A stretch of DNA of 64,000 nt from Candidatus Falkowbacteria bacterium RIFOXYC2_FULL_36_12 (GCA_001778235.1 MFGJ01000001.1:165605-229604); one strand, 5' to 3'. Shown: positions 4,408 to 56,985, counted from the stretch's first letter. A program made the numbers and translations. The notes: generated by a model not told the origin, from the sequence alone.

Positions 4408-4671
4408 TTGGTTATAAATAATATTGAAAATATGAATTTGAATGACATTTATCATTTTATAAGGAAGTTTTTATTTGAGGTTGCGTCGTATTTGCTCCTT
4501 CAGGCAATTGTGATGCTTGTTTTGGCGGTGGTGATAATTTTATATCCATATACCTTGAATTTATTGGTTGCTCTTGGATTTTTTGTTACTGCATTGGTTA
4601 GTCTTTATTTTATGGTACGAGTTGGTGTGCTGTTTCATAAGGTAAGAAAATTTGGTAAATTGGTGAAGTGA
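4408..4671 (+). CDS. Small membrane protein (2 TM), hypothetical
   Basis: Hydrophobic ORF, followed by REP-A copy 3 and a terminator. Confidence 0.3.
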   Translation: MVINNIENMNLNDIYHFIRKFLFEVASYLLLQAIVMLVLAVVIILYPYTLNLLVALGFFVTALVSLYFMVRVGVLFHKVRKFGKLVK

Positions 4672-4755
4672 TGACCTCCCCATGGGAAGATAACCTCCCC
4701 AAGCAAAGAGGGATGTGAGACCCCTCCTTGTAAAATAAGGAGGGGAGCGGTGAAG
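4668..4755 (+). repeat. REP-A hairpin element, copy 3
   Basis: gacctccccatgggaagataacctccccaagcaaagagggatgtgagacccctccttgtaaaataaggaggggag. Confidence 0.7.
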
Positions 4756-4801: not shown

Positions 4802-6016
4802 TTGGAATATATGAAAGAAAAATATTGTGAATATTGTTTTCCTGAAAAACCTAGACACTTTTTTGATAAGTTTACCAGTTCAGTAACGATTTTTTTAGTT
4901 GATCCATTGTATGTGTTTATTGGGAAAATATTAAATGCAAGGAATGTAAATAGACTTGGTAAAATTTTGGAAGATTTTATGATAAAATTTTTTTTCTTTT
5001 TTAATTTATTGGAAAGGGTGACTGAAATTGAAAGAGAGTATTATCCTAAAAGGGCATTAACTATTTGGGATGAAGCAAAGAAGCGCAATTTGGATATTTC
5101 CAGTGTGGTTTTTGGTAAGGGAAAAAAGTATTTGAATATATTTTGTTGGGAACAGGGAAATAAAAAACATTATTTCAAAGACAGTCCGGTATTTGAATTT
5201 GATGATATTCGGCCGAATGATATTTTGGTTGATGATAAAGCAAGATTTAAAGCGTTTTTAATTAAAAATGGATTACCATGTGCTGATGGCGGATGTTTTT
5301 TTTCAATGAAAAAAGCAATCAAGCATGGTCTTGAAATTGGGTGGCCGTTGGTGGTGAAGCCAGTTGCTTCGTCGCTTAGTCGGCATGCAATAGTGAAAAT
5401 TGATTCAAGAGAAAAACTGGTGAATGCAATAAAAATAGCAAAACAGATAGGTGCAAAAGTGGTGGTGGAAAAGTTTGTCGAGGGCAATGTTTATCGTGCA
5501 GTTGTTTTGGCTGGCTGTTTGATAGCGGTTGCTAAGAGATTGCCGGCAAACATTGTTGGCGATGGGGTTAATGTGGTGGAAAAATTGATAAAACAAAAGA
5601 ATTTGAAATTAAAAACAGATAGCCAGATTGTGATTGACGAAAATTTGATAAAAATGCTTGGGATGAAAAATAAGAATCTAGGTACAATATTGAGTTTTGG
5701 TGAAAGATTGGAATTGTCAGGCAAGGTGACTGTAAGGAGCGGTGGGGAAATTCATAATGAGACGGACTTTATCAATGCAGAAACAAAGAAAATGTTTGAA
5801 AAATTACAACTTGATTTAAATATTCCATATTGTGGGTTTGATTTTATCTGTCAGGATGTTAGCAGGAGTTATTTGGAGCAAAATTTTGCGATAATTGAAA
5901 ATAATACCTTACCATTTATTGAAATGCATCATGAACCAGATTTTGGAGAGCCGATTGATGTTGCTCGGATGGTTTGGGATTATGTGATTGAAAAAGAAAA
6001 AGAACTGGTTGGTTAG
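4802..6016 (+). CDS. ATP-grasp amino-acid ligase, cyanophycin-synthetase N-terminal-like. Paralog of 21440..22408 and 22405..23349.
   Basis: GWPLVVKP...KVVVEKFVEGNVYRAVVLAGCLIAVAKRLPANIVGDG resembles the ATP-grasp region of CphA (VPAxVVGDG). No Mur-ligase domain follows. The true start may lie downstream. Confidence 0.55.
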   Translation: MEYMKEKYCEYCFPEKPRHFFDKFTSSVTIFLVDPLYVFIGKILNARNVNRLGKILEDFMIKFFFFFNLLERVTEIEREYYPKRALTIWDEAKKRNLDISSVVFGKGKKYLNIFCWEQGNKKHYFKDSPVFEFDDIRPNDILVDDKARFKAFLIKNGLPCADGGCFFSMKKAIKHGLEIGWPLVVKPVASSLSRHAIVKIDSREKLVNAIKIAKQIGAKVVVEKFVEGNVYRAVVLAGCLIAVAKRLPANIVGDGVNVVEKLIKQKNLKLKTDSQIVIDENLIKMLGMKNKNLGTILSFGERLELSGKVTVRSGGEIHNETDFINAETKKMFEKLQLDLNIPYCGFDFICQDVSRSYLEQNFAIIENNTLPFIEMHHEPDFGEPIDVARMVWDYVIEKEKELVG

Positions 6017-6153
6017 TTTGGGGTCAGTTTTTATAAAATTTCTGGAGAATTTTATTCACTTTACGATTTGGGAAGTAAGAGGAAATTGTGGTATAATATT
6101 TTTGTAGAAATCAATGTGAGTGAGGGGAAACTCATAAGTTTTGTATTAAAATT

Positions 6154-7029
6154 ATGCAAAGACAAAAAATTCGAAAAGCAGTTATTCCTGTGGCTGGCTA
6201 TGGAACAAGATTTTTGCCAGCAACGAAAGCTCAACCAAAAGAAATGTTACCGGTAGTTGACAAACCTATAATTCAATACGCGGTAGAAGAAGCGGTGGCG
6301 GCTGGAATCACTGATATTATCTTGGTAACCGGGAGTGGAAAACGAGCGGTTGAAGATCATTTTAGTTACAATTTTGAAATACAGCATTTCCTCAAAAAAG
6401 TTGGTAAGGAAAAAGAAAGGGAAGAGATAAAAAGGATTGCGGATATGGCAAATTTTATTTATATTCGTCAAAAAGGTCCATATGGAAATGGTACTCCAGT
6501 ACTTTGTGCCAAAGATGTGGTTGGTGATGAACCATTTGTGGTGATTTGGGGTGATGAATTTTGGGATTGTCCGAAGGTGCCAAGAATAAAGCAACTTATT
6601 GATGTTTATGAAAAATATGGTGATCCAGTAATTGTGGCGAAAGATATTACAAAAGAAGAAACAAGAAAATATGGGGTAATTGATGGAGTGAAGGTTGGAA
6701 AAGATGTTTATGAGGTGAAAAAGTTGGTAGAAAAGCCTGGACCAAAAGATGCCCCATCACTGCTTGGGTCTGTTGGTGGATATTTGTTGACTCCTGATAT
6801 TTTTGAGGCTTTGGAACATACAAAGTTGGGTAAGGGTGGAGAGCTTTGGTTGCCTGACGCGATATCAAGATTGATGAAACAGAGAGCTTTGTATTGTAAG
6901 CGAATTGACGGGACTTATTATGATACTGGTTCGGTATTTGGCTATTTGAGAGCTAATGTTGAATTGGCGTTGAAACGAACTGAACTGAAAAAAGAGTTTA
7001 GAAAATATTTGAAAGGGTTGAATATATAG
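6154..7029 (+). CDS. galU: UTP--glucose-1-phosphate uridylyltransferase
   Basis: KAVIPVAGYGTRFLPATKAQPKEMLPVVDKP is the GalU signature. Confidence 0.9.
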   Translation: MQRQKIRKAVIPVAGYGTRFLPATKAQPKEMLPVVDKPIIQYAVEEAVAAGITDIILVTGSGKRAVEDHFSYNFEIQHFLKKVGKEKEREEIKRIADMANFIYIRQKGPYGNGTPVLCAKDVVGDEPFVVIWGDEFWDCPKVPRIKQLIDVYEKYGDPVIVAKDITKEETRKYGVIDGVKVGKDVYEVKKLVEKPGPKDAPSLLGSVGGYLLTPDIFEALEHTKLGKGGELWLPDAISRLMKQRALYCKRIDGTYYDTGSVFGYLRANVELALKRTELKKEFRKYLKGLNI

Positions 7030-7058: not shown

Positions 7059-8522
7059 GTGGGAAAATTTTTGTTAATTGTTAAGGTGAAAAATTATATG
7101 CAGAAAATTAAAAAATGGCGAACAGTTTTAACAGTGTTTTTGATTGCAATTTTTCTTGTTACAACTGGGGCTAGTTGTGCTAAGGGTGGAACCAGTGACG
7201 CCAAAGAATCTTTTAAGCCGGTTACCCTGAAATTTTGGACGGTTTTTGATGATCGAGATGCGTATGCTGATATTATTACTGCATATAAACAGTTACATCC
7301 AAATGTGACGATTGAATTCAAAAAATTGCGGTTTGAAGAATATGAAAAAGAGTTGATAGAAGCTTTTGCTCTTGGACAGGGCCCAGATATTTTTTCAATT
7401 CAAAATACATGGACAAATCAGTATTTAAAATTGCTTGATCCCATGCCACTGACTGTAAGTGTGCCAATAAAAACAATAGAAGGAACTGTGAAAAAAGAAG
7501 AAGTCATAAAATTGGTTACTGAAAAAATGTATACTCCAAGTCAGGTAAAAACAATTTTTGGCGATAATGTGGCAGAAGATACGGTGTTTCAATATAATGA
7601 AGGAACTGAAGATGAACCAATTTTAACACCACGAGTTTTCGGATTGCCAACGAGTTTGGATAATATGGTGCTTTATTATAATCGAGATATTTTGAATAAT
7701 GCAGGTGTGCCTGAACCAGCAAAATATTGGACTGATCTGGAAGGACAGATAGAAAAGATAAGAAAAGTTGATAATGATAATAATATTTTACAAGGGGCGA
7801 TTGCTCTTGGTACTGCAAAAAATGTTGTTCGAAGTTTTGACATTTTATCCTTGTTAATGATGCAACTCAAAACAGAAATGGTTGATGATCGCGGTCAAGT
7901 AAATTTTCATAAGATACCAGCATCTTTATCTGGTCAGGGAATAACAACTCCACCAGGAATTAATGGTTTGGAATTTTATGCGGCTTTTGCGGATCCAATA
8001 TTGAATACTTATACTTGGAATGAGAAAATGTTGGAATCATTGCAGGCTTTTACTTCAGGAAAATTAGCTTATTTCCCTGGATACGCCTATCATAGACCAT
8101 TTATCGAGGCGCAAGCACCTACAATGAATCTGGAAATTGCTCCAATGCTTCAGCTCGAAGGTTATGATACTGTAAACTTTGCTAATTATTGGCTTCAGTC
8201 AGTTTCAGCCAATAGTCAAAATAAAGGTTTTGCCTGGGATTTTGTAAGATTCATGACTTCACCTGAACAGGTAATAAAGTATTTAGATAAAACTGGAAAA
8301 CCAGCAGCTGTTAGGAGTTTGTTTGATAAACAGGTTCAAGATGAAGAGATGTCAGTTTTTGTTGAGCAGACTTTGACTGCAAAATCATGGTATAGAGGGA
8401 AGGATTATAAAGCAGCTGAAAAGATTTTTGATGATATGATAGAATCTGTTGGATTGGGTGAGGTGACGGCAAAAGAAGCGGCTGGATTGGCAGTGCAAAA
8501 GATTCAGCAGACGATGAAATAA
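7059..8522 (+). CDS. Extracellular solute-binding lipoprotein (ABC transporter substrate-binding, SBP family 1-like). The start may be at M 7098.
   Basis: Signal peptide with a TTGASC lipobox. About 450 aa mature periplasmic-binding-protein-like sequence. Confidence 0.6.
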   Translation: MGKFLLIVKVKNYMQKIKKWRTVLTVFLIAIFLVTTGASCAKGGTSDAKESFKPVTLKFWTVFDDRDAYADIITAYKQLHPNVTIEFKKLRFEEYEKELIEAFALGQGPDIFSIQNTWTNQYLKLLDPMPLTVSVPIKTIEGTVKKEEVIKLVTEKMYTPSQVKTIFGDNVAEDTVFQYNEGTEDEPILTPRVFGLPTSLDNMVLYYNRDILNNAGVPEPAKYWTDLEGQIEKIRKVDNDNNILQGAIALGTAKNVVRSFDILSLLMMQLKTEMVDDRGQVNFHKIPASLSGQGITTPPGINGLEFYAAFADPILNTYTWNEKMLESLQAFTSGKLAYFPGYAYHRPFIEAQAPTMNLEIAPMLQLEGYDTVNFANYWLQSVSANSQNKGFAWDFVRFMTSPEQVIKYLDKTGKPAAVRSLFDKQVQDEEMSVFVEQTLTAKSWYRGKDYKAAEKIFDDMIESVGLGEVTAKEAAGLAVQKIQQTMK

Positions 8523-8528
8523 GCGAGA

Positions 8529-8636
8529 AAAGCGAGTACAGCGAGTACAGCGAGTACAGCGAGTGAAGTGAGTACAGTGAGTGAAGTGAGTGAAGTGAGT
8601 ACAGTGAGTGAAGTGAGTACAGTGAGTGAAGTGAGA
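8529..8636. repeat. Tandem 9-bp repeat tract: 12 units of two variants, gcgagtaca and gtgagtgaa
   Basis: Direct reading. Lies immediately upstream (about 25 nt) of the first pilin gene. Confidence 0.85.
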
Positions 8637-8660
8637 AAGTAAATAATTGATTTAAATAAA

Positions 8661-9790: not shown

Positions 9791-10165
9791 ATGTTAAAAA
9801 AAATTATCGCAATTACAATGGTTTTGACTCTTGCAATAGCAGTCGCAACTCCGGTATTGGCGGCAAGTGATCCGTTCGGAGTAGAGACTGTTGGAACAGA
9901 ATTGAACCTTGGAAACAAAGATATTCGTCAGACAATTGGTGAGATTATCAATGTTGGTTTGGGATTTCTTGGAGTGGTTGCTATTATCATTGTACTTATT
10001 GGTGGTTTCAAGTATATGACTGCTGGTGGAGCTGAAGAAAAGACTAAAGAGGCAAGAAAATGGATAATTTCAGGTGTGATTGGTTTAGCAATTATTTTGT
10101 CTGCATACGCAATTACAACTTTTGTTGTAAATCAACTGGTTACAGCGACTGGTAGTGGTGTTTAG
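9791..10165 (+). CDS. TrbC/VirB2-like pilin family protein 3
   Basis: GGFKYMTAGGAEEKTKEARKWIISGVIGLAIILSAYAITTFV. Confidence 0.6.
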   Translation: MLKKIIAITMVLTLAIAVATPVLAASDPFGVETVGTELNLGNKDIRQTIGEIINVGLGFLGVVAIIIVLIGGFKYMTAGGAEEKTKEARKWIISGVIGLAIILSAYAITTFVVNQLVTATGSGV

Positions 10166-10181
10166 TCACGAAAATTATTGA

Positions 10182-10217
10182 GGCAGAGTTTTAGCAGCTG
10201 AAAAACTCTGCCGTTTT
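10182..10217 (+). terminator. Rho-independent terminator (ggcagagtttt...aaaactctgcc + TTTT)
   Basis: 11-bp stem followed by a T-run. Confidence 0.6.
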
Positions 10218-10252
10218 CACTAGAGTAAAAAGTCTATAAATTTTTTGCCTTA

Positions 10253-10642
10253 GTGAAAGATATGAAGAAATATTTAGTTTTAATTACAATATTAATGCTT
10301 TTTCCCCTTGGGGCGTTAAAGGCGTCGCCAATTGAAGATGGGTTGAATTTATCAGCTACAACTTCAGGCTTGGTGACTGAAGAGCAGACACAATCAGAGG
10401 CGGATTTATTGGTGGCGGAAAAGATAGGAACTATTATCAAGGTTTTTTTGTCAATTATTGGTATTATATTTTTGATGTTGATCATTTTCGGTGGTACTCT
10501 ATGGATGACTGCTGGTGGTGATCAAACTCAACTGACTAAAGGTAAGAACTATATTATTTACGCGGCGATTGGGCTGGTTATGATTGCCGGTAGTTATGCT
10601 GTAACAGATTTTGTGATAAGAGCATTTATTGATCAATTTTAG
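10253..10642 (+). CDS. TrbC/VirB2-like pilin family protein 4
   Basis: FGGTLWMTAGGDQTQLTKGKNYIIYAAIGLVMIAGSYAVTDFV. Confidence 0.6.
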   Translation: MKDMKKYLVLITILMLFPLGALKASPIEDGLNLSATTSGLVTEEQTQSEADLLVAEKIGTIIKVFLSIIGIIFLMLIIFGGTLWMTAGGDQTQLTKGKNYIIYAAIGLVMIAGSYAVTDFVIRAFIDQF

Positions 10643-10656
10643 ATATTATAAAAATT

Positions 10657-11043
10657 GTGCTAAAATGCATATTAAGTATGAAGAATAAAATTTTAATTTG
10701 TTTGGTACTGTTTGGTCTGGTTGTTGGAGGTCAAGTTTTGGCTTTTGATGTGGAAAATACTGGTTTGGGAAAAACTGCGGAAACGGCAGGGTATAATCTG
10801 ACTAAATCTGATCCAATAGTGATTGCTGGTAATGTAATTCAAATATTTTTGGGACTATTAGGTTTAATTTTGATGATTATTTTGGTTTATGCTGGTTTTA
10901 TGTACATGTTGGCTGGAGACAGATCTGATCAGGTGACAAAAGCTAAAGCTTGGATTACTAATAGTATAATAGGAATTGTGATTGTGGCAGGAGCCTATGC
11001 AATTTCAACCTATGTGATTGAGGCATTAATAAGTAGTGTTTAA
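10657..11043 (+). CDS. TrbC/VirB2-like pilin family protein 5
   Basis: AGFMYMLAGDRSDQVTKAKAWITNSIIGIVIVAGAYAISTYV. Confidence 0.6.
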   Translation: MLKCILSMKNKILICLVLFGLVVGGQVLAFDVENTGLGKTAETAGYNLTKSDPIVIAGNVIQIFLGLLGLILMIILVYAGFMYMLAGDRSDQVTKAKAWITNSIIGIVIVAGAYAISTYVIEALISSV

Positions 11044-11045
11044 AT

Positions 11046-11426
11046 ATGAAAAAAATTGTATTGTGTTTAATGATTATTTTGGCTTTATTTGTGATGACAA
11101 CGGTTGTGGTAAATGCCAGTGCTTTTGATCAAGCAGCAGTAAATTTGACCAAAGGTGGAGATCAAGCTTATGGAGAAGGGACTGAAACTGATTTGCCGAT
11201 TTTGGTTGGGAGTATTGTAAATGTTTTTTTGGCTGTGCTTGGTATTGTGCTGACAATAATAATAATTCGTGGTGGTTTTATGTACATGTTGGCTGGTGGT
11301 GATCCAAATCAAACTCAAAAAGCTAAATCATGGATTATTAATGGTGTAATTGGGTTAATAATTATTTTGGCGGCCTATGCGATCTCATCGTTTGTGGTCA
11401 GCAGTTTGGTAGAAGCGGGCAAATAA
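11046..11426 (+). CDS. TrbC/VirB2-like pilin family protein 6
   Basis: GGFMYMLAGGDPNQTQKAKSWIINGVIGLIIILAAYAISSFV. Confidence 0.6.
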   Translation: MKKIVLCLMIILALFVMTTVVVNASAFDQAAVNLTKGGDQAYGEGTETDLPILVGSIVNVFLAVLGIVLTIIIIRGGFMYMLAGGDPNQTQKAKSWIINGVIGLIIILAAYAISSFVVSSLVEAGK

Positions 11427-11441
11427 TTTAAGCTGAAATAT

Positions 11442-11843
11442 ATGAAAAAAATTTTAATATTTTTATTTCTGTTTGTTCTAGTGTTTCTAACATTGCAAAT
11501 AAGTCCGGTTTTAGCAGGGACCACCGAAAGAACTATTGAATCAGAGCTTGGTAAATTTGGGGATACTGGTTACGGAAGTGAAGAAGCAACTCCATTACCA
11601 TTACTTGTTGGGCGAATTATAAGTGTGGTTTTGGGGCTTTTGGGAATTGTGTTATTATTTATAATAATTCGCGGTGGATTTATGTATATGACTGCTGGCG
11701 GTGATCCAAATCAAACCCAGAAAGCTAAATCGTGGATTATAAATGGTGTGATTGGATTGGTGATTTGTTTTACTTCATATATGCTAAGTTCATATATTGT
11801 TGGGAGGCTGATGGAAGATGTGTTGCAGGTGACATTGTTGTAG
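11442..11843 (+). CDS. TrbC/VirB2-like pilin family protein 7
   Basis: GGFMYMTAGGDPNQTQKAKSWIINGVIGLVICFTSYMLSSYI. Confidence 0.6.
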   Translation: MKKILIFLFLFVLVFLTLQISPVLAGTTERTIESELGKFGDTGYGSEEATPLPLLVGRIISVVLGLLGIVLLFIIIRGGFMYMTAGGDPNQTQKAKSWIINGVIGLVICFTSYMLSSYIVGRLMEDVLQVTLL

Positions 11844-11867
11844 ATGTGAGAAGTACTGAAATTTGAT

Positions 11868-12062
11868 GATACAAATATACAAATACTACGAATATTACAA
11901 ATACTAGAGATACGAATATACAAATATTACGAATATTACAAATGCTAGAGATACGAATATACAAATACTACGAATATTACAAATGCTAGAGATACGAATA
12001 TACAAATATTACGAATATTACAAATACTAGAGATACAAAGATACAAATATTACGAATGCTAG
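11868..12062. repeat. Tandem repeat of about 41-42 bp, roughly 4.5 copies (agatacgaatatacaaatattacgaatattacaaatgctag)
   Basis: Direct reading. Lies between pilin 7 and pilin 8. Confidence 0.85.
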
Positions 12063-12148
12063 AAGTATGTATTATAGATATTACGGATTTATGAAAGTAA
12101 TGTATTTAATATATAATTGGAGATATAAAAAATAATTAAATAAAAATT

Positions 12149-12544
12149 ATGAAGACAAAAGTTATTGCAATGGTTTTATCACTCGTAGTGTGTTTATTGC
12201 TCGTTGCACCAGTAGCTTTGGCACAAATTGATATTCAAAGCAATTTGAATGCAACTGGTGAAGGTGTATATGGACCTGGGGATCAACCTTCAGATGAATT
12301 GCCAGTAATTATTGGACGAATTATCAATGTGGTGCTTGGTTTTATGGGTGTAGTCATGGTATTGATTGTAATTTATGGTGGATTTCTCTATATGACTGCT
12401 GGTGGTGAGCCAGGGAAAGCAGACAAAGCAAAAAGCTGGATTATAAACGGTATTATTGGTTTGATTATCATGCTGTCTGCCTATGGAATCACCAGTTTTG
12501 TTATCACTCGGTTAACAGCTGCCACAGGAACAACTGCAAATTAA
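12149..12544 (+). CDS. TrbC/VirB2-like pilin family protein 8
   Basis: GGFLYMTAGGEPGKADKAKSWIINGIIGLIIMLSAYGITSFV. Confidence 0.6.
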   Translation: MKTKVIAMVLSLVVCLLLVAPVALAQIDIQSNLNATGEGVYGPGDQPSDELPVIIGRIINVVLGFMGVVMVLIVIYGGFLYMTAGGEPGKADKAKSWIINGIIGLIIMLSAYGITSFVITRLTAATGTTAN

Positions 12545-12693: not shown

Positions 12694-12768
12694 CCCCAGA
12701 CCTGCTTTCATTAAGATTACGGCAGGCAAGCCCCGAGGTTGATCATGTTCGTGGGGTTTAAAGTTAGT
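12694..12768. repeat. F1 repeat (ccccagacctgc.ttcat.aagattacggcaggcaagccccgaggttgatcatgttcgtgggg). Copies also at about 12983-13050, 48050-48105, 48375-48440, 48478-48545; partial copy at 15905-15945.
   Basis: Direct reading. Internal inverted repeat cctgcc...ggcagg. Confidence 0.75.
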
Positions 12769-12790
12769 GATTGATTTTGCTAAAGCAAGT

Positions 12791-12960
12791 TTTTTTGACA
12801 CCCTGCCTGAAAGCATAGCCTGTCTCGACTTCACGGTGAAGACGGGCAAGATGCGTTAAATGTTATTGTTGTTTATATATTTAAATTTGTCACTCTGAAC
12901 TTGTTTCAGAGTATAAAGGGATAGCTTGATTATACCCTGAAATAAATTCAGGGTGACAAG
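12791..12960 (+). repeat. F4 ~170-bp repeat, copy 1 (ttttgacaccctgcctgaaagc...gtcactctgaacttgtttcagagtataaag...)
   Basis: About 90% identical to copy 2 at 15719-15900, in direct orientation. Confidence 0.8.
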
Positions 12961-13121
12961 TGAGCGTATTGGTAGCGCGCATTGCGCCCCAGACCTGACT
13001 TCATCAAGATTACGGCAGGCAAGACCCGATGATGTTTATGTTCGATGCTTTAAATATATTGGCTTGGTGGTGGTGTTTGCGGTAAAAAGCCTTAGTCATA
13101 ATAACTGGTGATTTTTATTGA

Positions 13122-28741: not shown

Positions 28742-29100
28742 CAAGTGGGGGTTGGTTGATTATACCCTGAAATCCATCTTCGTTAAAACTTCCGACTACG
28801 CTCTTTTGGGAGCTTCGACGGACAAGTCGATGGACAAGCAAATTCAGAGCCTGCCCTGAATTTAGTTCAGGGGTGACAAGTGGGAGATCCTGAAATCCAT
28901 CTTCGTTAAAACTTCCGACTACGCTCTTTTGGGAGCTTCGACGGACAAGTCGCTGGACAAGCAAGTTCAGAGCCTGCCCTGAATTTAGTTCAGGGATGAC
29001 GAGTGTTGGGTTCAGAGCTTGCCCTGAATTAATTTCAGGGGTGACAAGTGAGGTGTTTAGGGTGACGAATTAATGATATCAGGGTGAGGGTTGGTGGTTG
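28742..29100. repeat. Repeat island: F2 hairpins (ccctgaa-N-ttcaggg + tgacaagtg) and two tandem ~117-bp F3 units
   Basis: Direct reading. gtgacaagtg occurs at least 5 times. F3 units at about 28775-28875 and 28893-28993. Confidence 0.8.
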
Positions 29101-42343: not shown

Positions 42344-42419
42344 TGGAGCGGGTAGAGGGAATCGAACCCTCATCTCTAGCTTGGAAGGCTAGCATAATAA
42401 GCCATTATACTATACCCGC
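42344..42419 (-). tRNA. tRNA-Gly (anticodon TCC)
   Basis: Manual fold of GCGGGTA...CTAGC-CTTCCAA-GCTAG...GAGGGTTCGATTCCCTC-TACCCGC-TCCA. Confidence 0.85.
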
Positions 42420-42832
42420 CTACGCTCTTGTTGCACAGAGCTTCGGCGGGTAAACCCGCCATAGGCTATTGATTATTTTGGCGGTAAACCCGCCATAGAT
42501 GATTTAGATTAATCTTTTGTTGATAAAGGCTCTTTCCTGATCCAAATTTTAAGTATGTCTCAAACGCTAGAGCCTTACTTTTGTTTTCAAAAGCACAGTA
42601 AAATATGATTTTCCAAGGTTTATATTTTTGGGTGTGCTCGGATAAACCTAGATTGTGTTCAAGTAATCTATCATCTGGGGTTTATTGTATATCCTTTATA
42701 AAGTTCATTATCCTTACTTAAACTTTTTGCAATATAAACAAAGTGTTTTATGTTTGCTGGCATATAAGTTAAGAATTCCAATCTTCGACAAATTTTCTAA
42801 CTGGCCGTGCCAGCCGAAGCCTTGGCGAAGGC

Positions 42833-42853
42833 TGGTCGGGGAGGTGGGACTCG
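42833..42853 (-). pseudogene. Orphan 21-nt duplicate of the tRNA-Pro 3' end (tggtcggggaggtgggactcg)
   Basis: Exact match to 42996-43016. No upstream tRNA body. Confidence 0.6.
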
Positions 42854-42995
42854 GCTTCGACTCTCGCCTCGTTCCCTCGGCTCGGTCTAGCCACCGCCTC
42901 GCGGTCTCGTTCGCCATATTGCTCACTCGACAACGCTCCAGCGTTCTCGTCCCAACGCGAGCAAATCAATTTGCTCGCTCCTCTGATATAAAAAT

Positions 42996-43072
42996 TGGTC
43001 GGGGAGGTGGGACTCGAACCCACGACCTCATGGTCCCAAACCACGCGCGCTAGCCAACTGCGCTACACCCCG
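42996..43072 (-). tRNA. tRNA-Pro (anticodon TGG)
   Basis: Fold with anticodon loop TTTGGGA, T-arm GTGGGTTCGAGTCCCAC, and one acceptor mismatch. Confidence 0.8.
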
Positions 43073-43184
43073 AAGTATGTGCTCCGCACAACTTCGGGGC
43101 AAACCCCTCGAAAAATTGTACGAAGTAATTGATAAGTTTATTTATTTTAATGTGAATTGTGTTTTCGAAGCAACCTCTAATTCA

Positions 43185-43259
43185 TGGTGCCGAGGGGCAG
43201 AATTGAACTGCCGACACGAGGATTTTCAGTCCACTGCTCTACCACTGAGCTACCTCGGC
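43185..43259 (-). tRNA. tRNA-Phe (anticodon GAA)
   Basis: GCCGAGGTAGCTCAGTGGTAGAGC...CTGAAAA...GGCAGTTCAATTCTGCC-CCTCGGC-ACCA. Confidence 0.85.
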
Positions 43260-43323
43260 ATGAGAAATTTCTACTTTATAAATTATTAATCTTTTAAGTT
43301 TATTGCCTCTCGATAAACTCGAG

Positions 43324-43400
43324 TGGTGGGCGTGACAGGAGTCGAACCTGTGACCTCAACATTATCAGTGTTGCGCTCTAACCAACTGAGCTACACGCCC
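43324..43400 (-). tRNA. tRNA-Ile (anticodon GAT)
   Basis: GGGCGTGTAGCTCAGTTGGTTAGAGCG-CAACA-CTGATAA-TGTTG... Confidence 0.85.
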
Positions 43401-43486
43401 GTCTTCGCTCTAACGAACTTCGACGGGCAAGCCCAATTTAAAAAATGGCCTGCCAGACGAAGCTCCATGAAATTAGGATCGTAGTC

Positions 43487-43563
43487 TGGTGGGTGCTGAA
43501 GGATTCGAACCCTCGACCCCTTCGGTGTAAACGAAGTGCTCTAACCAGCTGAGCTAAGCACCC
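43487..43563 (-). tRNA. tRNA-Val (anticodon TAC)
   Basis: GGGTGCTTAGCTCAGCTGGTTAGAGCA-CTTCG-TTTACAC-CGAAG... Confidence 0.85.
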
Positions 43564-43794
43564 TAAATATTATAAATGATTAGCGAAGCTGCCAGCCTAA
43601 GCCAGCTGCTTGTCCGCCGAAGTCAAAAGACGAAGGCGGGAGCTAAGCACCCTTGAAAAGCGAGTTCAGCAAGACAAGAGGAAAAGCAAGTAATGCGGAA
43701 AACGATTTATACTCAAAAAGTATGACCCAATTATAATATGATTTTTAAAAAAAGTCAATAAGAAGATTGCGATTTATTCAAAATATTTTTAAAC

Positions 43795-43826
43795 AAAAAA
43801 ATTGATGTTCGACATCAATTTTTTTG
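43795..43826. terminator. Palindromic hairpin aaaaaaattgatgttcgacatcaattttttt between the 16S rRNA and the tRNA cluster
   Basis: Direct reading. Confidence 0.5.
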
Positions 43827-43927
43827 ATGATTTTGATAGCAATTTTGCGACAGGAACTACGTACTCGAATCATATCGATTCAAGTTCGACTGAATCTAAT
43901 GGCGTGAACCATTGATTCTAATCTCCC

Positions 43928-45425
<1,498 letters not shown>

Positions 45426-47722: not shown

Positions 47723-48637
47723 AATAAGATTAAAGTTGTAAGTTGTAATGTGAAAGTTGTCTTTGCTTGTATTATAGGGGAGAATAAAGGAAATTTCAAT
47801 GAGGGGGTTTAATTTCTGGTTACAATTAATATTTGCGAATTGAAAATAAATATTTAGAAAGTTTATTACATTTGCTAGCGTAAGTTTTTTGAGAATAAGT
47901 GATTGATTTCGCTTTGCGATTTCTTTTGACGCCCTGCCTACCCTGCCTACCGGCAGGCAGGCGGCAGGCAGGCAAAAGAAACAGAAGCGCTGGGGTTTTC
48001 TAATTGAATGCCTTTAAATACCCTTTTGTGCGCTCATGACAGCAACGAAAACCCCAGACCTGCCTTCATCAAGATTACGGCAGGCAAGCCCCGATGTTAA
48101 TCATGTAAAAATAAAGTAAGTGGTTGATGTTGCTAAAGCAAGCCCTTTTTGACAGCAAAAAGGGCAAACCGCCTACACTAAAGTTTCGGCGGTCAAGAAA
48201 CTGCTGGGGGGATTCAATGCGAATTGCATGGCAAACAAGTTCTCTGTAGGAAAAGTTTAGAGTGAGAAGTGAGAGTTGATTGATTATACCCTGAAATCCA
48301 TCTTCGTTAAAACTTCGATGGACAAGTAAATTCAGGGTGACAAGTGAGAGTGTTGGTGGCACGCACATGACCACCCCAGACCTGCCTTCATCAAGATTAC
48401 GGCAGGCAAGCCCCCGTGATGTTCATGTTCGATGCTTTAAATATATAGCCTTGGTGGTGTTGTTCATGGCAAAACAAACCCCAAACCTGCCTTCATCAAG
48501 ATTACGGCAGGCAAGCCCCGAGGTTGGTCATGTTCGTGGGGTTGAATATTTAAAGTAAGTGATAGTATTAATTGTGTTTAAAACAGAAAAATCGCAGTAA
48601 TGCGATTTTTCTGATCTATTTGAAATTGATTGAAGTT
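47723..48637. repeat. Repeat island: long imperfect palindrome cctgcctaccctgcctaccggcaggcaggcggcaggcagg, three F1 copies, and an F2/F3 unit
   Basis: Direct reading. Sits where rimM would be expected in the rpsP operon. Confidence 0.75.
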
Positions 48638-50544: not shown

Positions 50545-50552
50545 ACTTTTCA

Positions 50553-50578
50553 AAAACGAGCCTGATGGCTCGTTTTTG
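50553..50578 (+). terminator. Rho-independent terminator aaacgagcc-tgat-ggctcgttttt
   Basis: Hairpin plus T-run. A similar hairpin lies at 56953-56985. Confidence 0.65.
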
Positions 50579-50983: not shown

Positions 50984-51290
50984 AATGTTTAGTAAAATTA
51001 AATTAGTAAAATTAAAATGGAAAGAAAATTTAATTTTTTATTTTATAATGTTGCTAAATTCACGATGTGATATAACTTGCTGTTTTGTTCTGCGTCCTCA
51101 ACTTTAAATACATAGCGAATTCCGTCTTTATCATACATAGAATATGTTCCAGCTCCTAAATCTTCTGATGTATTATTTGTTGTGTAGGTTGTAAATTCAA
51201 TTGCGAAGTAAACCTCCGAAACGAACGAGCAATTTTGAACCCAATATGCCGTGCTAGCGAATGTAAATAAATTCGCGAGCGGATAGCGAG

Positions 51291-52424
51291 TTATTGTTTG
51301 CGAATTCGCTCTATTTCTTTAACATCCTTTACTTTTCGTCTCATCTTGTTTAATTCTTGTCGTTTTTGATTATTTTTTTCTTCAACTCCAAAAAGGCTAA
51401 TAGCGATAGCTAATATGTTATCAATTGATTTATCTTCCGATTCTACAATTTTTTTTCCTAATTTTTTTAGCCCTTCTGTCATATCTTCTCGTTTCTGAAA
51501 TTCGGGCTGGTTTTGCATAAGATCGAAAATTTCGTTCGCATTCATTTCTGGTCTGATTTGATTGGCGAAACCCTCAAAAATTTTTCGTCCGCGTTCAACA
51601 TTTGCCTTAAATTCATCTTCATAAACTTTTTCTATATCATCAATATCTTCTTCTGTGATTCTGCCTGTTTCAATTAATTTTTCTGCATCGGTAACATCAT
51701 AATTTCTACCTTGATGGAGCTTATAGTAAAGTACTTTTCCAGGATGTGAAATATTAATTTGTCTGCCTTGAAATTCTAGTGGTTGCGGTTGAACCCACTT
51801 TTCTGGAATAGGCGTGCGCGAAACACCTAAAGGTTTACCAGTCTCATCCCTTTGAATAATATGAACATCCACAAAATTTAATGCTTTATCTCGGCGAATT
51901 TTCCCATTTTCATCTATAGCCGCGATTAGCATGTGCTCTGTATCTAATTCGGCGAAATTCCTGAAACTTACTCGCCTCATTATTTTATTTTTGGTTTTAT
52001 CTTCTGTGCGAGATAAAAATAAGCCATACCCATTTTTAAGCAACTGCACCTCCAATGCTTCGAGTTCGTCTTTCTCTACCGAGATATCAACATCTTTATG
52101 TTCTCCTATGTATTTCTCAGGGTTTTCGCCAGCGCCATTCATTAAGGATATATTCAAAGCTCCATCAAGGTGCCAATTCAAATCAGACCCTTCAAATGCT
52201 TGGCCTAATTCTTCGATGCTTTGATTCATTTTTTTAACAATTTCAGGAGAAGGCCTTTTGCGGATGAAATTTTCATCAATTTTTCCAGTAAAATCTTCCC
52301 ATGGCGGTTGCTCCTGCTCGTAATATTCAGCCCGAATTTCAGAAGCACGCCTTTGTTCATCCGTCATCATGCTTTCGGCTTTGTTAATTTCCTCTTGTGT
52401 TGGATTGTATTTTTCTGGATTCAT
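51291..52424 (-). CDS. Putative nucleotidyltransferase of the ANT(2'')/Lnu-like family (tentative), with a long C-terminal helical region
   Basis: NWHLDGALNISLMNG...HKDVDISV resembles the W.LDGGWG.DAL.G...R.H.DID motif of aminoglycoside-2''/lincosamide nucleotidyltransferases. Confidence 0.4.
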   Translation of the reverse strand: MNPEKYNPTQEEINKAESMMTDEQRRASEIRAEYYEQEQPPWEDFTGKIDENFIRKRPSPEIVKKMNQSIEELGQAFEGSDLNWHLDGALNISLMNGAGENPEKYIGEHKDVDISVEKDELEALEVQLLKNGYGLFLSRTEDKTKNKIMRRVSFRNFAELDTEHMLIAAIDENGKIRRDKALNFVDVHIIQRDETGKPLGVSRTPIPEKWVQPQPLEFQGRQINISHPGKVLYYKLHQGRNYDVTDAEKLIETGRITEEDIDDIEKVYEDEFKANVERGRKIFEGFANQIRPEMNANEIFDLMQNQPEFQKREDMTEGLKKLGKKIVESEDKSIDNILAIAISLFGVEEKNNQKRQELNKMRRKVKDVKEIERIRKQ

Positions 52425-52569
52425 AAAAATAAAATTTGTCCAAGTAATTTTTCTGCGATAGCAGAAAAGAATTTAATTATTTCAGCTAACATCCGCGTGT
52501 ATGCGATGTCCGAGCGAAGTGAGGATATGGGTGCCAGCCGCATACACGCTGTTAGGCGACGTATCTTAA

Positions 52570-52761
52570 TTAAAAAAATACGCCAATTAACCCACCAATA
52601 ATTCCGGTTAGTATAATAATTTTCCAGCTTGGAAACCGTTTTTTTGTTAGCCGATATATTATTATTGTTGGAACTAAGAAAATAGCAGCACTAATGATGA
52701 ATACAAGAATGATGCCCAGTGCAATCCCCAGTTTAAATGTGTCACTAAATAAATAAATCAT
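52570..52761 (-). CDS. Small membrane protein (2 TM), hypothetical
   Basis: Hydrophobic ORF. Confidence 0.3.
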   Translation of the reverse strand: MIYLFSDTFKLGIALGIILVFIISAAIFLVPTIIIYRLTKKRFPSWKIIILTGIIGGLIGVFF

Positions 52762-52774
52762 ATTAAATTTAGAT

Positions 52775-53050
52775 ATGTCGTTGAATGGGCTGCGCCTAAT
52801 GCGAAGTTGCGGACGGGTAGCGGAGCTATCCGACAGGCAATTTCGTATAGGCGCTGTTGTGCGCTTGTCCGCCTAAGGCGGGATGCCATGCGAGCACACA
52901 GCGCCGGAGGCGCAGCCCATTGTGCAAAACAACGGGAGCGACACGCGGAGCGTGTGCGAGCGGTTTTGCACAATGTTTCGGCATCATCCGAAGTTGCGTA
53001 GCAATTTAGGTGGAGCGTAGCGGAACCAGATATGCCGTGTTGTGCGATGT
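52775..53050. repeat. GC-rich structured repeat, copy A (15-bp terminal inverted repeats aatgggctgcgcct/aggcgcagcccatt, plus a second palindrome tgtgcaaaac...gttttgcaca)
   Basis: Near-identical to 54336-54610 and 55150-55330. Very high GC relative to the surrounding sequence. Confidence 0.85.
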
Positions 53051-53074
53051 TCAAAAAATATTTTTCATTCCTTT

Positions 53075-53464
53075 TTATTTTGACAGGCTTTCATCTATAA
53101 ACAATTTTAACGCGTCAATATCTTTAGTATTTTGGTCGTAATGAAATGTATTAACACCAACAGATTGAGCGCTCTTTACAGCATCTAAATTATGCTCAAA
53201 ATACACAACATCTTTTACTTCAAGATTAAAATGCTTGAGCATAGTTTCAAAATATTTCGGATCTGTTTTTTCGGGGTCATGTTTAAGCGTAAAGACTTCG
53301 TAGGGCATCTTATTTAGGCCAAACATTTCCATCTCCTCATCATTAGCACCAGTCAAGATGATTTTCTTGTTTGGGTATTGCTCAAGCATTTTATACATTT
53401 CATTAAAGACACCCTCGCCCTTTATTACAAAAGCGTTAATTGCATCTACTAAAATTGTTTTCAT
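53075..53464 (-). CDS. Small HAD-like hydrolase (tentative)
   Basis: ILVDAINAF at the N-terminus and VVYFEHNLDAVKSAQSVG near the C-terminus are compatible with a short HAD-family fold. Confidence 0.35.
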   Translation of the reverse strand: MKTILVDAINAFVIKGEGVFNEMYKMLEQYPNKKIILTGANDEEMEMFGLNKMPYEVFTLKHDPEKTDPKYFETMLKHFNLEVKDVVYFEHNLDAVKSAQSVGVNTFHYDQNTKDIDALKLFIDESLSK

Positions 53465-53685
53465 AAGCGCCTGTCAAAATTATTAATAAAAGGAAAAATA
53501 TTTTTTGAATTTCGCACAACGTTAGTGATAAACGAAGTTCGTTTGACTGAAAGGAAAACGAATTTGGGAAAATGCCGAGCCGAGGCATTTTCCGGTTATC
53601 ACTTGTTGTACGACCCGAGGTCTGCCTTCCTTATTATTAATTAAGAAAAGGCAGGCCGAGAGCGCAGCGAGGCTTGATTTTTACT

Positions 53686-54303
53686 TTAAGAAATATTTTT
53701 TATAACTCCATAAATAGCTATCTTTTTTTTGTTTCTTTTTGCCCACCAAATATCGCCATATGACCAATGCCAGTATTCCTTTGGGTAATTAGACAAACCA
53801 GCTTTTTTCAGGGAGGCGAACATAGTTTCTCTATTTTGCTGAATGTATTTTGATAATTTAGGCTGAAATGATTTGGCGTTTTCCTGATATGTTAATTTTG
53901 AACTTTTCATCGGGATTTTTCTACCGTTTTTCCATAATCTTAAATCAACCGCCCCTCCTGTCATATGCCCAGAAGCGTTTTTACCGTCAGAAGGAGCAAC
54001 GTATTTCTCAACCTCTTTTATGATTTTGTCTTTAGTCCAGGAGGGGTGTTTTTTAGAAAAACGATCAATAAACCATTTTTTAATTTCTTCTTGAACATAT
54101 TGAGGCCGCCATGCATCATTAATTATGAATGTCATTCCATCTGGCAATTCTTTTTCAGCGCGCCAAATCATTTCAGCCACTGTTTTTCTTAGGTAGGCTG
54201 TTTTTTCTTTCTTCATTCGTCGCTTACCTAAATTGATAATTATATTTGGGCAAACTTTATTTATATTAACTAATGGTTCATTACATTCTTTGATATTTAT
54301 CAT
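53686..54303 (-). CDS. Peptidase M15 family D-Ala-D-Ala carboxypeptidase/dipeptidase (VanY/VanX-like)
   Basis: SGHMTGGAVDL (S.H...G.A.D) and EYWHWSYG (E.WHW) zinc-ligand motifs. Confidence 0.6.
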   Translation of the reverse strand: MINIKECNEPLVNINKVCPNIIINLGKRRMKKEKTAYLRKTVAEMIWRAEKELPDGMTFIINDAWRPQYVQEEIKKWFIDRFSKKHPSWTKDKIIKEVEKYVAPSDGKNASGHMTGGAVDLRLWKNGRKIPMKSSKLTYQENAKSFQPKLSKYIQQNRETMFASLKKAGLSNYPKEYWHWSYGDIWWAKRNKKKIAIYGVIKNIS

Positions 54304-54335
54304 AAAAAATATTTCTTAAAGTAAAATTTCGTACA

Positions 54336-54610
54336 ATGGGCTGCGCCTAATGCGAAGTTGCGGACGGGTAGCGGAGCTACCCGACGGGCAATGTCGCATA
54401 GGCGCTGTTGTGCGATGCCATAGCGAGCACACAGCGCCGGAGGCGCAGCCCATTGTGCAAAACAACGGGAGCGACACGCGGAGCGTGTGCGAGCGGTTTT
54501 GCACAACGTTGCCGATATCCGAAGTTTTCTGAAGCGAAGCGAAAGAAAATTTGGGTGAGCATTTGGCGGAGCCAAGCGCGAACCAGATATCGAGCTGTTA
54601 TGTGATGTAA
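54336..54610. repeat. GC-rich structured repeat, copy B
   Basis: Direct comparison with copies A and C. Confidence 0.85.
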
Positions 54611-54649
54611 TTTAATTAACGAGCGATAGCGAGTGTTGTTGGGGCAAAT

Positions 54650-55087
54650 TTATTTAATCTTGAATTCAGGAGTAGTTTCGTTTTTAAGTTCCTTTTTCCA
54701 GTTTGTTAGCTCAAAATATTGCTCAATGTCGCCAGCTTTATGTATGTGTTGTTCCGTTGGTTTTATTTCATCCAAATTTTCAATTACTAATTGGTTTTCA
54801 TCAAATTTCCTTGCCACTCCTTCTTCGACTTCCACTTCGTAAATGTAAACTTCTTTTTCAGGATTAAATAACTCAGGATTCTCAAACTCAATTGTATCGT
54901 TTTCATGATTAATACGTGTCACTCCATCGGGTCTTGCTGCCATAGCTAGCGCGTATTTATAATGCGGTGTTAAATAGATTCCGTCTTTTAATTCGTCTTC
55001 AGGGACTTCAACTCCTTCTCCTGCTTGCGCCTGCATCTTTTTAATTGTTTTAAGATTTCCATTTCTGGAGCCGTGATATAGTTTCAT
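54650..55087 (-). CDS. Hypothetical protein
   Basis: 145-aa ORF. No recognisable motif. Confidence 0.4.
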   Translation of the reverse strand: MKLYHGSRNGNLKTIKKMQAQAGEGVEVPEDELKDGIYLTPHYKYALAMAARPDGVTRINHENDTIEFENPELFNPEKEVYIYEVEVEEGVARKFDENQLVIENLDEIKPTEQHIHKAGDIEQYFELTNWKKELKNETTPEFKIK

Positions 55088-55149
55088 ACTAAAAGATTAA
55101 ATAAATTTGCCCCAACAACATTTTTGCAAGAGCAAAAATAATTAAATTA

Positions 55150-55330
55150 TTTCACATAATGGGCTGCGCCTAATGCGAAGTTGCGGACGGGTAGCGGAGC
55201 TACCCGACGGGCAATGTCGCATAGGCGCTGTTGTGCGATGCCATAGCGAGCACACAGCGCCGGAGGCGCAGCCCATTGTGCAAAACAACGGGAGCGACAC
55301 GCGGAGCGTGTGCGAGCGGTTTTGCACAAC
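55150..55330. repeat. GC-rich structured repeat, copy C (between the first cassette-like gene and the recombinase gene)
   Basis: Direct comparison. Confidence 0.85.
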
Positions 55331-55389
55331 TCCTTTTATGCGAAGTTAATTTATTTTATGGTATAATAAGTGCATAAAGGGAGTTTGAA

Positions 55390-56268
55390 TTGCTTAAAAT
55401 AGCAATTCATAAGTATATTATGATTATAGCAAATCAAAAAATAAAATCAAAACAACTAGATACTTTGATTAGTTTGAAAAATGAGCTTAAATTGAGGAAT
55501 TATTCTCCAAAAACATGTAAATCTTATATTGGGGTTAATTTGAGGTTTTTGGATTGGTTTGGAAAATCTCCGAGAGAAGTCAAAAATGAGGATATTCGGA
55601 GATATTTGGAGGATTTACGACATAGGGGAATTAGTGCTTCAACTCTTAGTGTTGATATTAATGCACTTAAATTTTATTATACAAAAGTATTAAAACGGAA
55701 GTTTTTTTCTGACATAAAACATCCCAAACAAAGACAAAGTTTGCCTGTAGTCTTATCAGTTTCTGAAGCAAAATTGTTGATAGACTCAACTAAAAATGAA
55801 AAATATAGGTTCGCTTTTTGCTTAATGTATGGTAGTGGACTTAGGTTGTCTGAAGTTTTAGATTTACGAGTTGCTGATATTGATTTTGATAGAAAAGTTA
55901 TTCATATCAAAGCGGGTAAAGGAAATAAGGATAGGATTACAATTTTGGCTGAAAAAATGATCCCTAACTTAAAATTATTTGTAAAAGATAGAGAGTCTGA
56001 TCAATTTGTTATCTTTGGTCTGGCTGGTCAAAAATTGACTGCAAGATCAGTGCAAAAAATGTTTCAAAAATCTTTATCTGAAGCACAAATTAGGAAACCA
56101 GCAACTTGCCATTCGCTTCGTCATTCATTTGCGACGCATCTACTTGAAAATGGTACTGATATTCGATATATTCAAGAGTTATTAGGTCATAAGAAGTTAG
56201 AAACAACACAGATTTATACTCATGTAACAAATTCTGTGTTGAAAAATATTGAAAGTCCTTATCAATAA
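55390..56268 (+). CDS. Tyrosine site-specific recombinase (XerC/XerD-like phage-integrase family)
   Basis: GLRLSEVLDLRVADID (Arg I), HSLRHSFATHLLENGTDIRYIQELLGHKKLETTQIYTHV (box II with catalytic Tyr). Confidence 0.8.
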   Translation: MLKIAIHKYIMIIANQKIKSKQLDTLISLKNELKLRNYSPKTCKSYIGVNLRFLDWFGKSPREVKNEDIRRYLEDLRHRGISASTLSVDINALKFYYTKVLKRKFFSDIKHPKQRQSLPVVLSVSEAKLLIDSTKNEKYRFAFCLMYGSGLRLSEVLDLRVADIDFDRKVIHIKAGKGNKDRITILAEKMIPNLKLFVKDRESDQFVIFGLAGQKLTARSVQKMFQKSLSEAQIRKPATCHSLRHSFATHLLENGTDIRYIQELLGHKKLETTQIYTHVTNSVLKNIESPYQ

Positions 56269-56952: not shown

Positions 56953-56985
56953 AAAAAAAACGAGCCAGGTGGCTCGTTTTGTGTT
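56953..56985 (+). terminator. Rho-independent terminator aaaacgagcc-aggt-ggctcgtttt
   Basis: Hairpin plus T-run. Confidence 0.65.

Follow-up and report, generated by a model that had tools for sequence, protein, structure and literature searches.

What kind of genetic element sets a tyrosine recombinase gene against a row of small, unrelated genes that are separated by GC-rich palindromes? The question is raised by an island at 51.2–56.3 kb of a 64-kb stretch of DNA (called the window here; AT-rich, with a GC content of about 34%) from Candidatus Falkowbacteria bacterium RIFOXYC2_FULL_36_12, a bacterium of the candidate phyla radiation (CPR, or Patescibacteria). The island is flanked by rpsP and a gene for a KH protein on the left, and by tRNA-Cys, prs and polA on the right. 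The recombinase gene (55390–56268, plus strand) diverges from eight co-oriented units, which comprise five single-gene cassettes and three copies of a 170–188 nt cassette without an open reading frame (ORF). The original prediction for this DNA had placed all ORFs from 51291 to 55087 opposite the recombinase, and this was borne out, as all five lie on the minus strand. It had further proposed an integron-like array with a non-canonical, XerD-sized recombinase, or perhaps a different recombinase-associated system. The attC-like ends of the units, a conserved attI-like junction and a cassette with exact boundaries that is found in several arrays support this proposal. We put at roughly 75% the probability that the island serves a CPR bacterium as a chromosomal platform for cassettes of the integron type. 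It is best described as an integron-type array with a non-canonical integrase and whole-cassette palindromy, whose mechanism we infer rather than demonstrate.

Cassette units and their attC-like ends

When the minus strand is read leftwards from the recombinase, the units are bounded by ...L'-spacer-[G/A]↓TTxxxx-GAAAT... at the start (the arrow marks the putative crossover point) and by ...ACATC-R''-A-L''-loop-L' at the end. The R'' cores are GCACAAC, GTACAAC, ACATAAC or the canonical GCCTAAC, and the R' cores are GTTGTGC, ATTGTGC, ATTGTAC or GTTAGCT. Cores of the types GCCTAAC, GCACAAC and GTATAAC pair with GTTAGCT, GTTGTGC, GTTATAT and GTTAGGC. The original prediction had reported no clean R'' (RYYYAAC) or R' (GTTRRRY) cores, a statement that has to be withdrawn: near-canonical cores are present between all units on the cassette strand. 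Six of the eight units begin with a hexamer that pairs perfectly with their own R'' (variants TTATGT/ACATAA, TTGTAC/GTACAA and TTGTGC/GCACAA), as expected of circular cassettes cut at G↓TT.

The attC-like sites measure 74–103 nt, or 128 nt in the ORF-less unit (overall range up to 140 nt). In the fold, the R stem is separated from the L stem by an internal loop that is small and asymmetric, and the L stem is mostly capped by a two-hairpin loop with a conserved AACTTCG. Nine sites from three genomes were aligned using seeds that were hand-trimmed to fit the proposed structure, so that the pairing counts lean towards it; 87.6% of the cells were paired and 13 of 17 pairs had changed on both sides, compared with 24–42% paired cells in controls with slid partners. 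At each of the six sites tested, the fold of the bottom strand is the more stable one, by 1.2–4.3 kcal/mol over that of the top strand. A module common to several junctions, initially written as (a)accagatatgccgtg.tg.gcgatg, is real and represents the R''-L'' half of the attC-like sites (51236–51262, 53024–53049 and 54580–54606, with a variant at 52488–52508). The spacer at 53520–53685, initially called dissimilar and yet palindromic, does differ in sequence and does fold strongly (z = −4.5 to −6.6).

An nhmmer profile derived from natural attC-like sites was used as the detector and replaced a covariance model (R1), which is discussed below. In the window, the profile matched only at 52479–55240 and always on the minus strand. 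In the loci L003, L004, L073, L214 and L216, the matches are confined to the DNA upstream of the recombinase gene, on the strand opposite to it; L214, from Moranbacteria, has eight of them across 8.5 kb. No match was found downstream of the recombinase in relative loci oriented by that gene, and all matches in L209 and L211 are co-oriented with the cassette ORFs. A scan with regular expressions and stems gave 961 hits and was discarded as far too permissive in an AT-rich, G-skewed genome.

The unit closest to the recombinase is copy C of the ORF-less cassette (55160–55329, 170 nt; this and all following units are on the minus strand), a short hairpin payload with its own attC-like three-way-junction palindrome. 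Cassette 1 (54507–55159) contains a hypothetical 145-aa ORF (54650–55087), an attC-like site (54501–54603) and a terminal inverted repeat (54634–54661/55093–55120), and its first six bases are complementary to its own R'' (TTATGT/ACATAA). It is followed by copy B (54337–54506, 170 nt) and by cassette 2 (53520–54336), in which the ORF (53686–54303) is D-Ala-D-Ala dipeptidase-like (M15) and the attC-like site is located at 53514–53611. The ends of cassette 2 are complementary (TTGTAC/GTACAA), and it carries a perfect terminal inverted repeat of 25 nt (53679–53703/54302–54326), a perfect internal one of 18 nt (53861–53878/54161–54178) and a GC hairpin (53612–53678).

Cassette 3 (52974–53519, attC-like site 52968–53045) comprises a HAD-like 129-aa ORF (53075–53464), a terminal inverted repeat (53039–53069/53490–53520) and two internal ones (53227–53241/53379–53393 and 53139–53151/53393–53405); the z-score for the fold of the whole cassette is −7.3. 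Copy A (52786–52973) is 188 nt long owing to a 19-nt insertion. Cassette 4 (52490–52785) encodes a 63-aa membrane protein (52570–52761), and its attC-like site (52484–52557) has both a canonical R'' (GCCTAAC) and a canonical R' (GTTAGCT). The last unit, cassette 5 (51190–52489), has a nucleotidyltransferase-like ORF of 377 aa (51291–52424) with nested internal inverted repeats (51493–51509/52328–52344 and 51708–51722/52157–52171). A degenerate terminal attC remnant at approximately 51190–51262 marks the end of the array, and the profile found no match to the left of it in the window.

The functions first assigned to the cargo proved to be of unequal quality. The VanY/M15 peptidase is solid (PF01427, 42.5 bits with a cut-off of 27). 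The HAD-like assignment is weak (TIGR01509, 28.0 with a cut-off of 29.4), as is the ANT(2'')/Lnu-like nucleotidyltransferase, which falls below its cut-off (PF10706, 18.4 with a cut-off of 21). The 63-aa and 145-aa proteins matched no family. Among the relative loci compared, no DNA homologue was seen for the ORF-less core or for the cassettes of the hypothetical, M15, membrane-protein and nucleotidyltransferase genes.

The GC-rich repeat occurs in three copies (52775–53050, 54326–54600 and 55149–55330). The original prediction was right about the three near-identical copies, but not in taking them for the attC sites of the neighbouring genes, in a homogeneous array of the type formed by Vibrio cholerae repeats (VCRs); they are separate ORF-less cassettes with an attC-like site of their own. 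The last two copies of the 182-nt core are 98% identical, and the first is the one with the insertion. The copies match exactly from TTGTGC to ...CAGCCCA↓TT, that is, between two putative G↓TT crossover points, and this exact bounding indicates a triplicated ORF-less cassette. A 45-mer of the core occurs three times in the window, never outside the island, and not at all in 100 shuffles. Copy B folds with −56.2 kcal/mol (z = −12.6). An Rfam search of the structured elements, at gathering and at permissive thresholds, gave no match; a family for attC does not exist in Rfam. We also considered an RNA gene, group I/II introns, bridge or omega RNAs and retrons, and rejected them for want of partner proteins and of an Rfam match. 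Invertons were rejected because the cassettes are co-oriented in every genome.

The recombinase, the attI-like junction and related arrays

The tyrosine recombinase consists of 292 residues with the Pfam domains Phage_integrase and SAM_4. It just passes the cut-off of NF040815, the XerA/'integron integrase' model (228.4 bits; cut-off 220). It fails those of the integron integrase model TIGR02249 (227.5; cut-off 265), which it matches in two stretches, of PRK15417 (147.8; 435), of XerC (205; 335) and of XerD (193; 330). The best sequence match in the PDB is 2A3V (VchIntIA), followed by archaeal XerA, and the predicted structure gives the same order by fold, with 2a3v at a TM-score of 0.75 and XerA structures second. 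In the alignment with 2A3V, residues 197–218 of the recombinase (22 aa) are opposite residues 180–244 of IntI4 (65 aa, including the I2 helix), and the model has only a short beta-hairpin in place of the IntI-specific insertion. The earlier remark that no IntI extra domain is obvious is thereby confirmed, as the insertion of about 43 aa is absent. The protein should therefore not be filed as a canonical integron integrase; judged by its sequence, it probably belongs to the IntI/XerA branch, without the I2 insertion. Positions that are invariant among 26 homologues include motifs that appear to be the catalytic residues of tyrosine recombinases. The best homologue is 69% identical. When genome contigs were scanned with a profile of the recombinase alignment, true IntIs, Bacteroidota Xer-like genes and CPR/DPANN genes were returned mixed, and no relative above 50% identity was found in that scan. 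The window has no second tyrosine recombinase.

Between the array and the recombinase gene is an attI-like region (55330–55389), with a putative crossover between 55329 and 55330 (minus strand, CGCATAAAAGGAG↓TTGTGC). Two inverted sites of 14–15 nt (55328–55342 and 55371–55385) flank the −10 box of the recombinase, TGnTATAAT (55359–55367). The junction CGCATAAAAGG(A/T)G↓TT is kept in ten loci (L001–L008, L142 and L192), a comparative and not a biochemical result, and is conserved upstream of recombinases that are 64–69% identical to the one in the window. The motif and the pair of inverted sites co-vary in position with the recombinase promoter. The content of the array changes exactly at this point: L006 and L007 have the same recombinase and are identical at 165 of 165 positions up to GGAGTT and unrelated beyond it. 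The L007 cassette has the same first 21 nt as that of L142, the attI sides of the two being only 78% identical (133/171). The locus L002 ends exactly at GGAGTT, and many contigs break 100–600 nt upstream of the recombinase gene, which fits repeated or polymorphic arrays. A scan of metagenomes for the 16-mer TCGCATAAAAGGAGTT returned mostly chance matches, and a recombinase adjoins the motif only in L142 and L192.

A candidate Pc-like promoter (55423–55450, minus strand) lies within the 5' end of the recombinase gene and points into the cassettes, which might be expressed from it. It is the best sigma-70-like match in 50.9–56.4 kb (TTGATT-16-TATAAT with TG, 10 of 12), where the total of such matches is not above that of shuffles.

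A similar attI-like motif, GCGTAT↓AACACCTATTATGCC, was noted at 100–130 of L039, a locus from Woesearchaeota (DPANN archaea), about 110 nt upstream of the gene for a recombinase relative. The cassette system may thus extend to DPANN archaea.

The divergent layout of recombinase and array recurs in L003, L004, L006, L214 and L216, where the recombinases are 50–69% identical to ours; even the relatives at 50–52% identity, from Moranbacteria and another CPR contig, have it. Peregrinibacteria relatives are accompanied by attC-like repeats. In the Flavobacteriia loci with recombinase relatives, neither an array nor attC-like repeats were found. The 129-aa HAD-like protein has homologues of 90–95% identity that are labelled Falkowbacteria, Magasanikbacteria, Moranbacteria, Saccharibacteria and even 'Bacteroidetes'. 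Its cassette, together with the attC-like site, is also present in L209 (Falkowbacteria) and L211 (Magasanikbacteria), in other unidirectional arrays and among different neighbours. The three DNA copies align with a mean column identity of 89%, flanks included, and the homology starts at [G/A]↓TTGT(G/A)CGAAAT and stops at ...GATGATGCCGA(A/T)AC(A/G)↓TT. Their long stems differ by a single compensatory pair and a single disruptive change, the copies being too similar for a covariation signal.

The arrays of the relatives also offered some observations on cargo. In Magasanikbacteria and Moranbacteria (L211, 2390–14390; L214, 4307–6727), the apparent cassettes include restriction-modification and defence-type genes, among them N6_N4 methyltransferases, MutH, GmrSD and a fused type I restriction-modification system; L211 carries APH and shikimate-kinase-like genes as well. 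In the L003 array, one of the cassettes is a VIT1-family gene (5739–6215); in L004 (11970–12437) and L006 (5100–5576) this gene stands downstream of the recombinase, where it may be part of a second array or a cassette relocated beyond the recombinase. The L004 copy has many long-range pairs (60).

Inverted repeats, proposed mechanism and alternatives

In many cassettes the gene is bracketed by a nearly perfect inverted repeat of 25–31 nt that belongs to that cassette, a feature the original prediction did not mention. The 5' arm comprises the R box and GAAAT and runs up to the ATG, and the 3' arm runs from the last codons and the stop codon to ACATC and R''. Perfect inverted repeats of 13–18 nt are also nested within the coding sequences. 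Long-range inverted repeats have a density of 2.4/kb in the island and 0.13/kb in the rest of the window, an 18-fold difference, and shuffled island sequence gives 0.54/kb. Across six loci, 16 of 29 cassettes and 0 of 18 control genes show a complementarity between 5' and 3' ends that is above the 95th percentile of mismatched pairs. The median score is 14 for the two ends of one cassette and 7 for ends taken from different cassettes. End complementarity is thus general but not universal among cassettes. An APH cassette has seven nested inverted repeats. The z-scores of whole-cassette folds go down to −10 to −11, with medians of −2.7 for cassettes and −0.7 for controls (p = 0.04), and the median number of long-range pairs is 46 compared with 18.5 (p = 0.003).

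On a circular or single-stranded cassette, the stem of the attC-like hairpin would become much longer, reaching the ORF and entering it. The repeats might reflect selection for a folded single-stranded cassette, or a 'perfecting' of the palindrome by template switching on such an intermediate.

In the mechanism we propose, the adjacent recombinase would be the catalyst and would join the attI-like site that immediately precedes its gene (CGCATAAAAGGAG↓TT) to the attC-like palindromes at the 3' ends of the cassettes, exchanging strands at [G/A]↓TT within the R' core. The unit TTxxxx-GAAAT-5'UTR-ORF-3'UTR-ACATC-R''-L''-variable loop-L'-spacer-G (UTR, untranslated region) would be excised as a circle and re-inserted. 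Once single-stranded, a cassette would form a single long hairpin whose open end bears the attC-like site; the strand that reacts may be the bottom one, which folds better. As the I2 insertion is absent, the canonical contacts to extrahelical bases cannot be used for site recognition, and both site recognition and the choice of strand must differ from those of VchIntIA. More generally, we advance tentatively, at somewhat less than even odds, that CPR bacteria and perhaps DPANN archaea have a widespread natural class of I2-less integrons, in which the integrase either lost I2 or never possessed it. They would represent the ancestor of integrons from before I2 or an I2-independent solution, and their cassettes would move as whole single-stranded hairpins, the cassette-specific stems (from the R boxes across the UTRs into the coding sequence) being part of the recombination substrate or made by template switching on it.

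Several observations weigh against an integron-type platform. In canonical integron biology, the missing IntI-specific domain, some 35–45 aa around patch III with the I2 helix, is held to be necessary for attC recombination. The bulge of 2–3 nt and most of the single-base bulges are on the L'/R' arm, and not on the L''/R'' arm as in canonical attC, where extrahelical bases on that arm of the folded bottom strand determine the choice of strand. The covariance model R1, built from hand-trimmed 56-nt seeds, was too weak for sites with long loops: apart from half-sites, it recovered a single site, the one whose loop is shortest. Judging by locus tags, the order of the array seems to be the same in sibling Falkowbacteria genomes. 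Finally, a recombinase that passes the XerA cut-off and has homologues in very many CPR genomes could be a housekeeping Xer also, or instead.

The last point leads to the reading of the recombinase as a housekeeping XerA/XerS-type dimer resolvase, of the 'attI' as dif, and of the cassettes as Xer-exploiting elements (IMEX- or pdif-like) that have piled up at dif. The NF040815 score, the absence of I2 and the abundance of homologues in CPR genomes would all fit, the 25–31 nt inverted repeats around the genes superficially resemble pdif modules, and in some single-recombinase Xer systems (XerS/difSL) dif adjoins the recombinase gene. The GC skew, however, is positive on both sides of the island (1–42 kb and 55–64 kb, in the 64 kb of genome covered), so the locus is not a replication terminus. 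The sites are long structured palindromes with integron-type cores instead of 11-6-11 dif sites, the arrays are strictly unidirectional, and the gene-flanking repeats differ between cassettes and hence offer no common binding site. The Flavobacteriia relatives of the enzyme, moreover, come without an array. We consider this explanation improbable. The array might instead be real and the neighbouring recombinase not its mover: a canonical IntI, encoded elsewhere or by donor organisms, would move the cassettes in trans, or the array would be a fossil. The L209 array has no recombinase within 7 kb, L211 has only a 33-aa remnant upstream of its array, and the missing I2 and the apparently stable cassette order of the siblings point the same way. 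Against it stand the recurrent divergent layout in five loci, the attI-like motif and inverted sites that track the recombinase promoter, the first cassette that is polymorphic beside identical recombinase genes, and the lack of any further tyrosine recombinase in the window, all of which make it quite improbable.

A variable island invaded by structured repeats, whether miniature inverted-repeat transposable elements (MITEs) or repetitive extragenic palindromes (REPs), without cassette-type site-specific recombination had been offered as an alternative from the beginning. The genome is rich in dispersed repeat families and the GC-rich element is both highly structured and repeated, but all three copies sit within the array and none elsewhere in the 64 kb, they begin and end at the conserved [G/A]↓TT points, homologous sites occupy the same position and orientation in other lineages, and a whole cassette is common to several arrays with precise boundaries. 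We regard this explanation as very improbable. A live alternative concerns the inverted repeats only: they would act at the level of RNA, where the 3' end would pair with the 5' UTR and the start codon, either to silence stored cassettes or as stems for RNase III processing or stabilisation, unrelated to DNA recombination. The stems do take in the stretch that leads to the AUG as well as the last codons and the stop codon, and in classical integrons the structure of attC is known to influence the translation of cassettes. Such a role leaves unexplained the complementarity that runs through the R boxes (GAAAT/ACATC and the unit's own R'/R'') and the nested perfect repeats deep in the coding regions, and it is on the non-coding strand that the attC-like sites have the more stable fold. 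We hold it to be unlikely as the whole explanation, though worth keeping in view, and recombination-level and RNA-level roles could both operate.

Other features of the window are recorded here for completeness. Two 25-nt GC hairpins that are 92% identical (50552–50576 and 56956–56980; AAAAACGAGCC(T/A)G(A/G)TGGCTCGTTTT) enclose a gene for a 111-aa membrane protein, the array, the recombinase and a TSP3-repeat gene; both probably act as terminators in either direction and are of one type. Several more repeat families, dispersed or in tandem and 77–118 nt in length, have no relation to the repeat of the array (57–133, 3142–3218 and 4671–4747; 12694–13087 and 48052–48579; 12816–12933/15745–15862; 28766–29050); GC-rich hairpins occur in some of them, and for its size the genome has unusually many repeats. 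Tandem arrays were seen at 8503–8644 (9-nt unit, AGCGAGTAC-like, some 11 copies in register) and at 11868–12072 (41-nt unit, some five copies). At 9916–12521, four paralogous segments share approximately 230 nt with 61–70% identity to the reference copy; perhaps they are the members of a small gene family in tandem. Positions 42344–45425 hold the gene for 16S rRNA, on the minus strand, and then five tRNA genes (Val, Ile, Phe, Pro and Gly); there is no 23S rRNA in the window, and the rRNA genes are thus unlinked.

Comparison with known integrons and Xer systems

Integrons are defined by an integrase with an I2-containing extra domain, which is thought to enable recombination of single-stranded attC (PMC4792948, PMC7790495). 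Arrays of attC-type sites that look functional and are associated with an I2-less, XerA-like integrase would bear on the origin of integrons from Xer recombinases. Detection tools that require the C-terminal signature of intI would class such systems as attC-site clusters that lack an integron integrase (CALINs), which may explain the attC clusters without a detected IntI in small-genome lineages. A 129-aa cassette protein that is 90–95% identical across several candidate phyla also points to a concrete route for gene exchange among CPR lineages. In the full-text literature, the coverage of which is incomplete so that a prior description is possible, we found no description of CPR integrons or of I2-less integron integrases; nor was an account of whole-cassette self-complementarity found in the searchable literature. 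This self-complementarity could make the nature of the cassette intermediate testable.

The closest likeness is to sedentary chromosomal integrons such as the Vibrio cholerae superintegron, with its VCR attC sites and IntIA (2A3V). Shared features are an intI divergent from a unidirectional array of small, unrelated and mostly promoterless cassettes, imperfect palindromes with RYYYAAC...GTTRRRY-type cores at the cassette ends, a G↓TT crossover, an attI beside intI, duplicated and in part ORF-less cassettes, and cargo that includes defence- or resistance-type genes. The island differs in its host, a CPR bacterium, and in an integrase that lacks the insertion of about 43 aa with the I2 helix and stays below the TIGR02249 cut-off. 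In its sites, the bulged bases are on the L'/R' arm, conserved ACATC and GAAAT flanks extend the R boxes, and the complementarity runs past the crossover, through the UTRs and into the coding sequences. Archaeal integrons likewise consist of cassette arrays in small-genome uncultivated lineages including DPANN, and are mostly attC clusters without a detected IntI, with 6 IntIs for 75 genomes (Ghaly et al. 2022, PMC9668308). The setting resembles that of the island, and an attI-like motif similar to that of the island precedes the Woesearchaeota relative in L039. The IntIs described from archaea possess the IntI-specific additional domain (PMC9668308), which the island recombinase lacks.

With the single-recombinase Xer systems, namely XerA/dif of Archaea, XerS/difSL and XerH/difH, the island protein shares its size, its domain architecture, the absence of I2 and the passing of NF040815. 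Those systems have one dif of 28–31 bp at the terminus and no array, whereas the island has many long structured sites in a unidirectional array and no skew switch. The pdif modules of Acinetobacter are similar in being small gene modules that are bracketed by inverted sites and are putative substrates of Xer-type recombinases. All pdif, however, share one conserved XerC-spacer-XerD sequence in alternating orientation, whereas the bracketing repeats of the island are specific to each cassette and its conserved attC-like palindromes all face in one direction.

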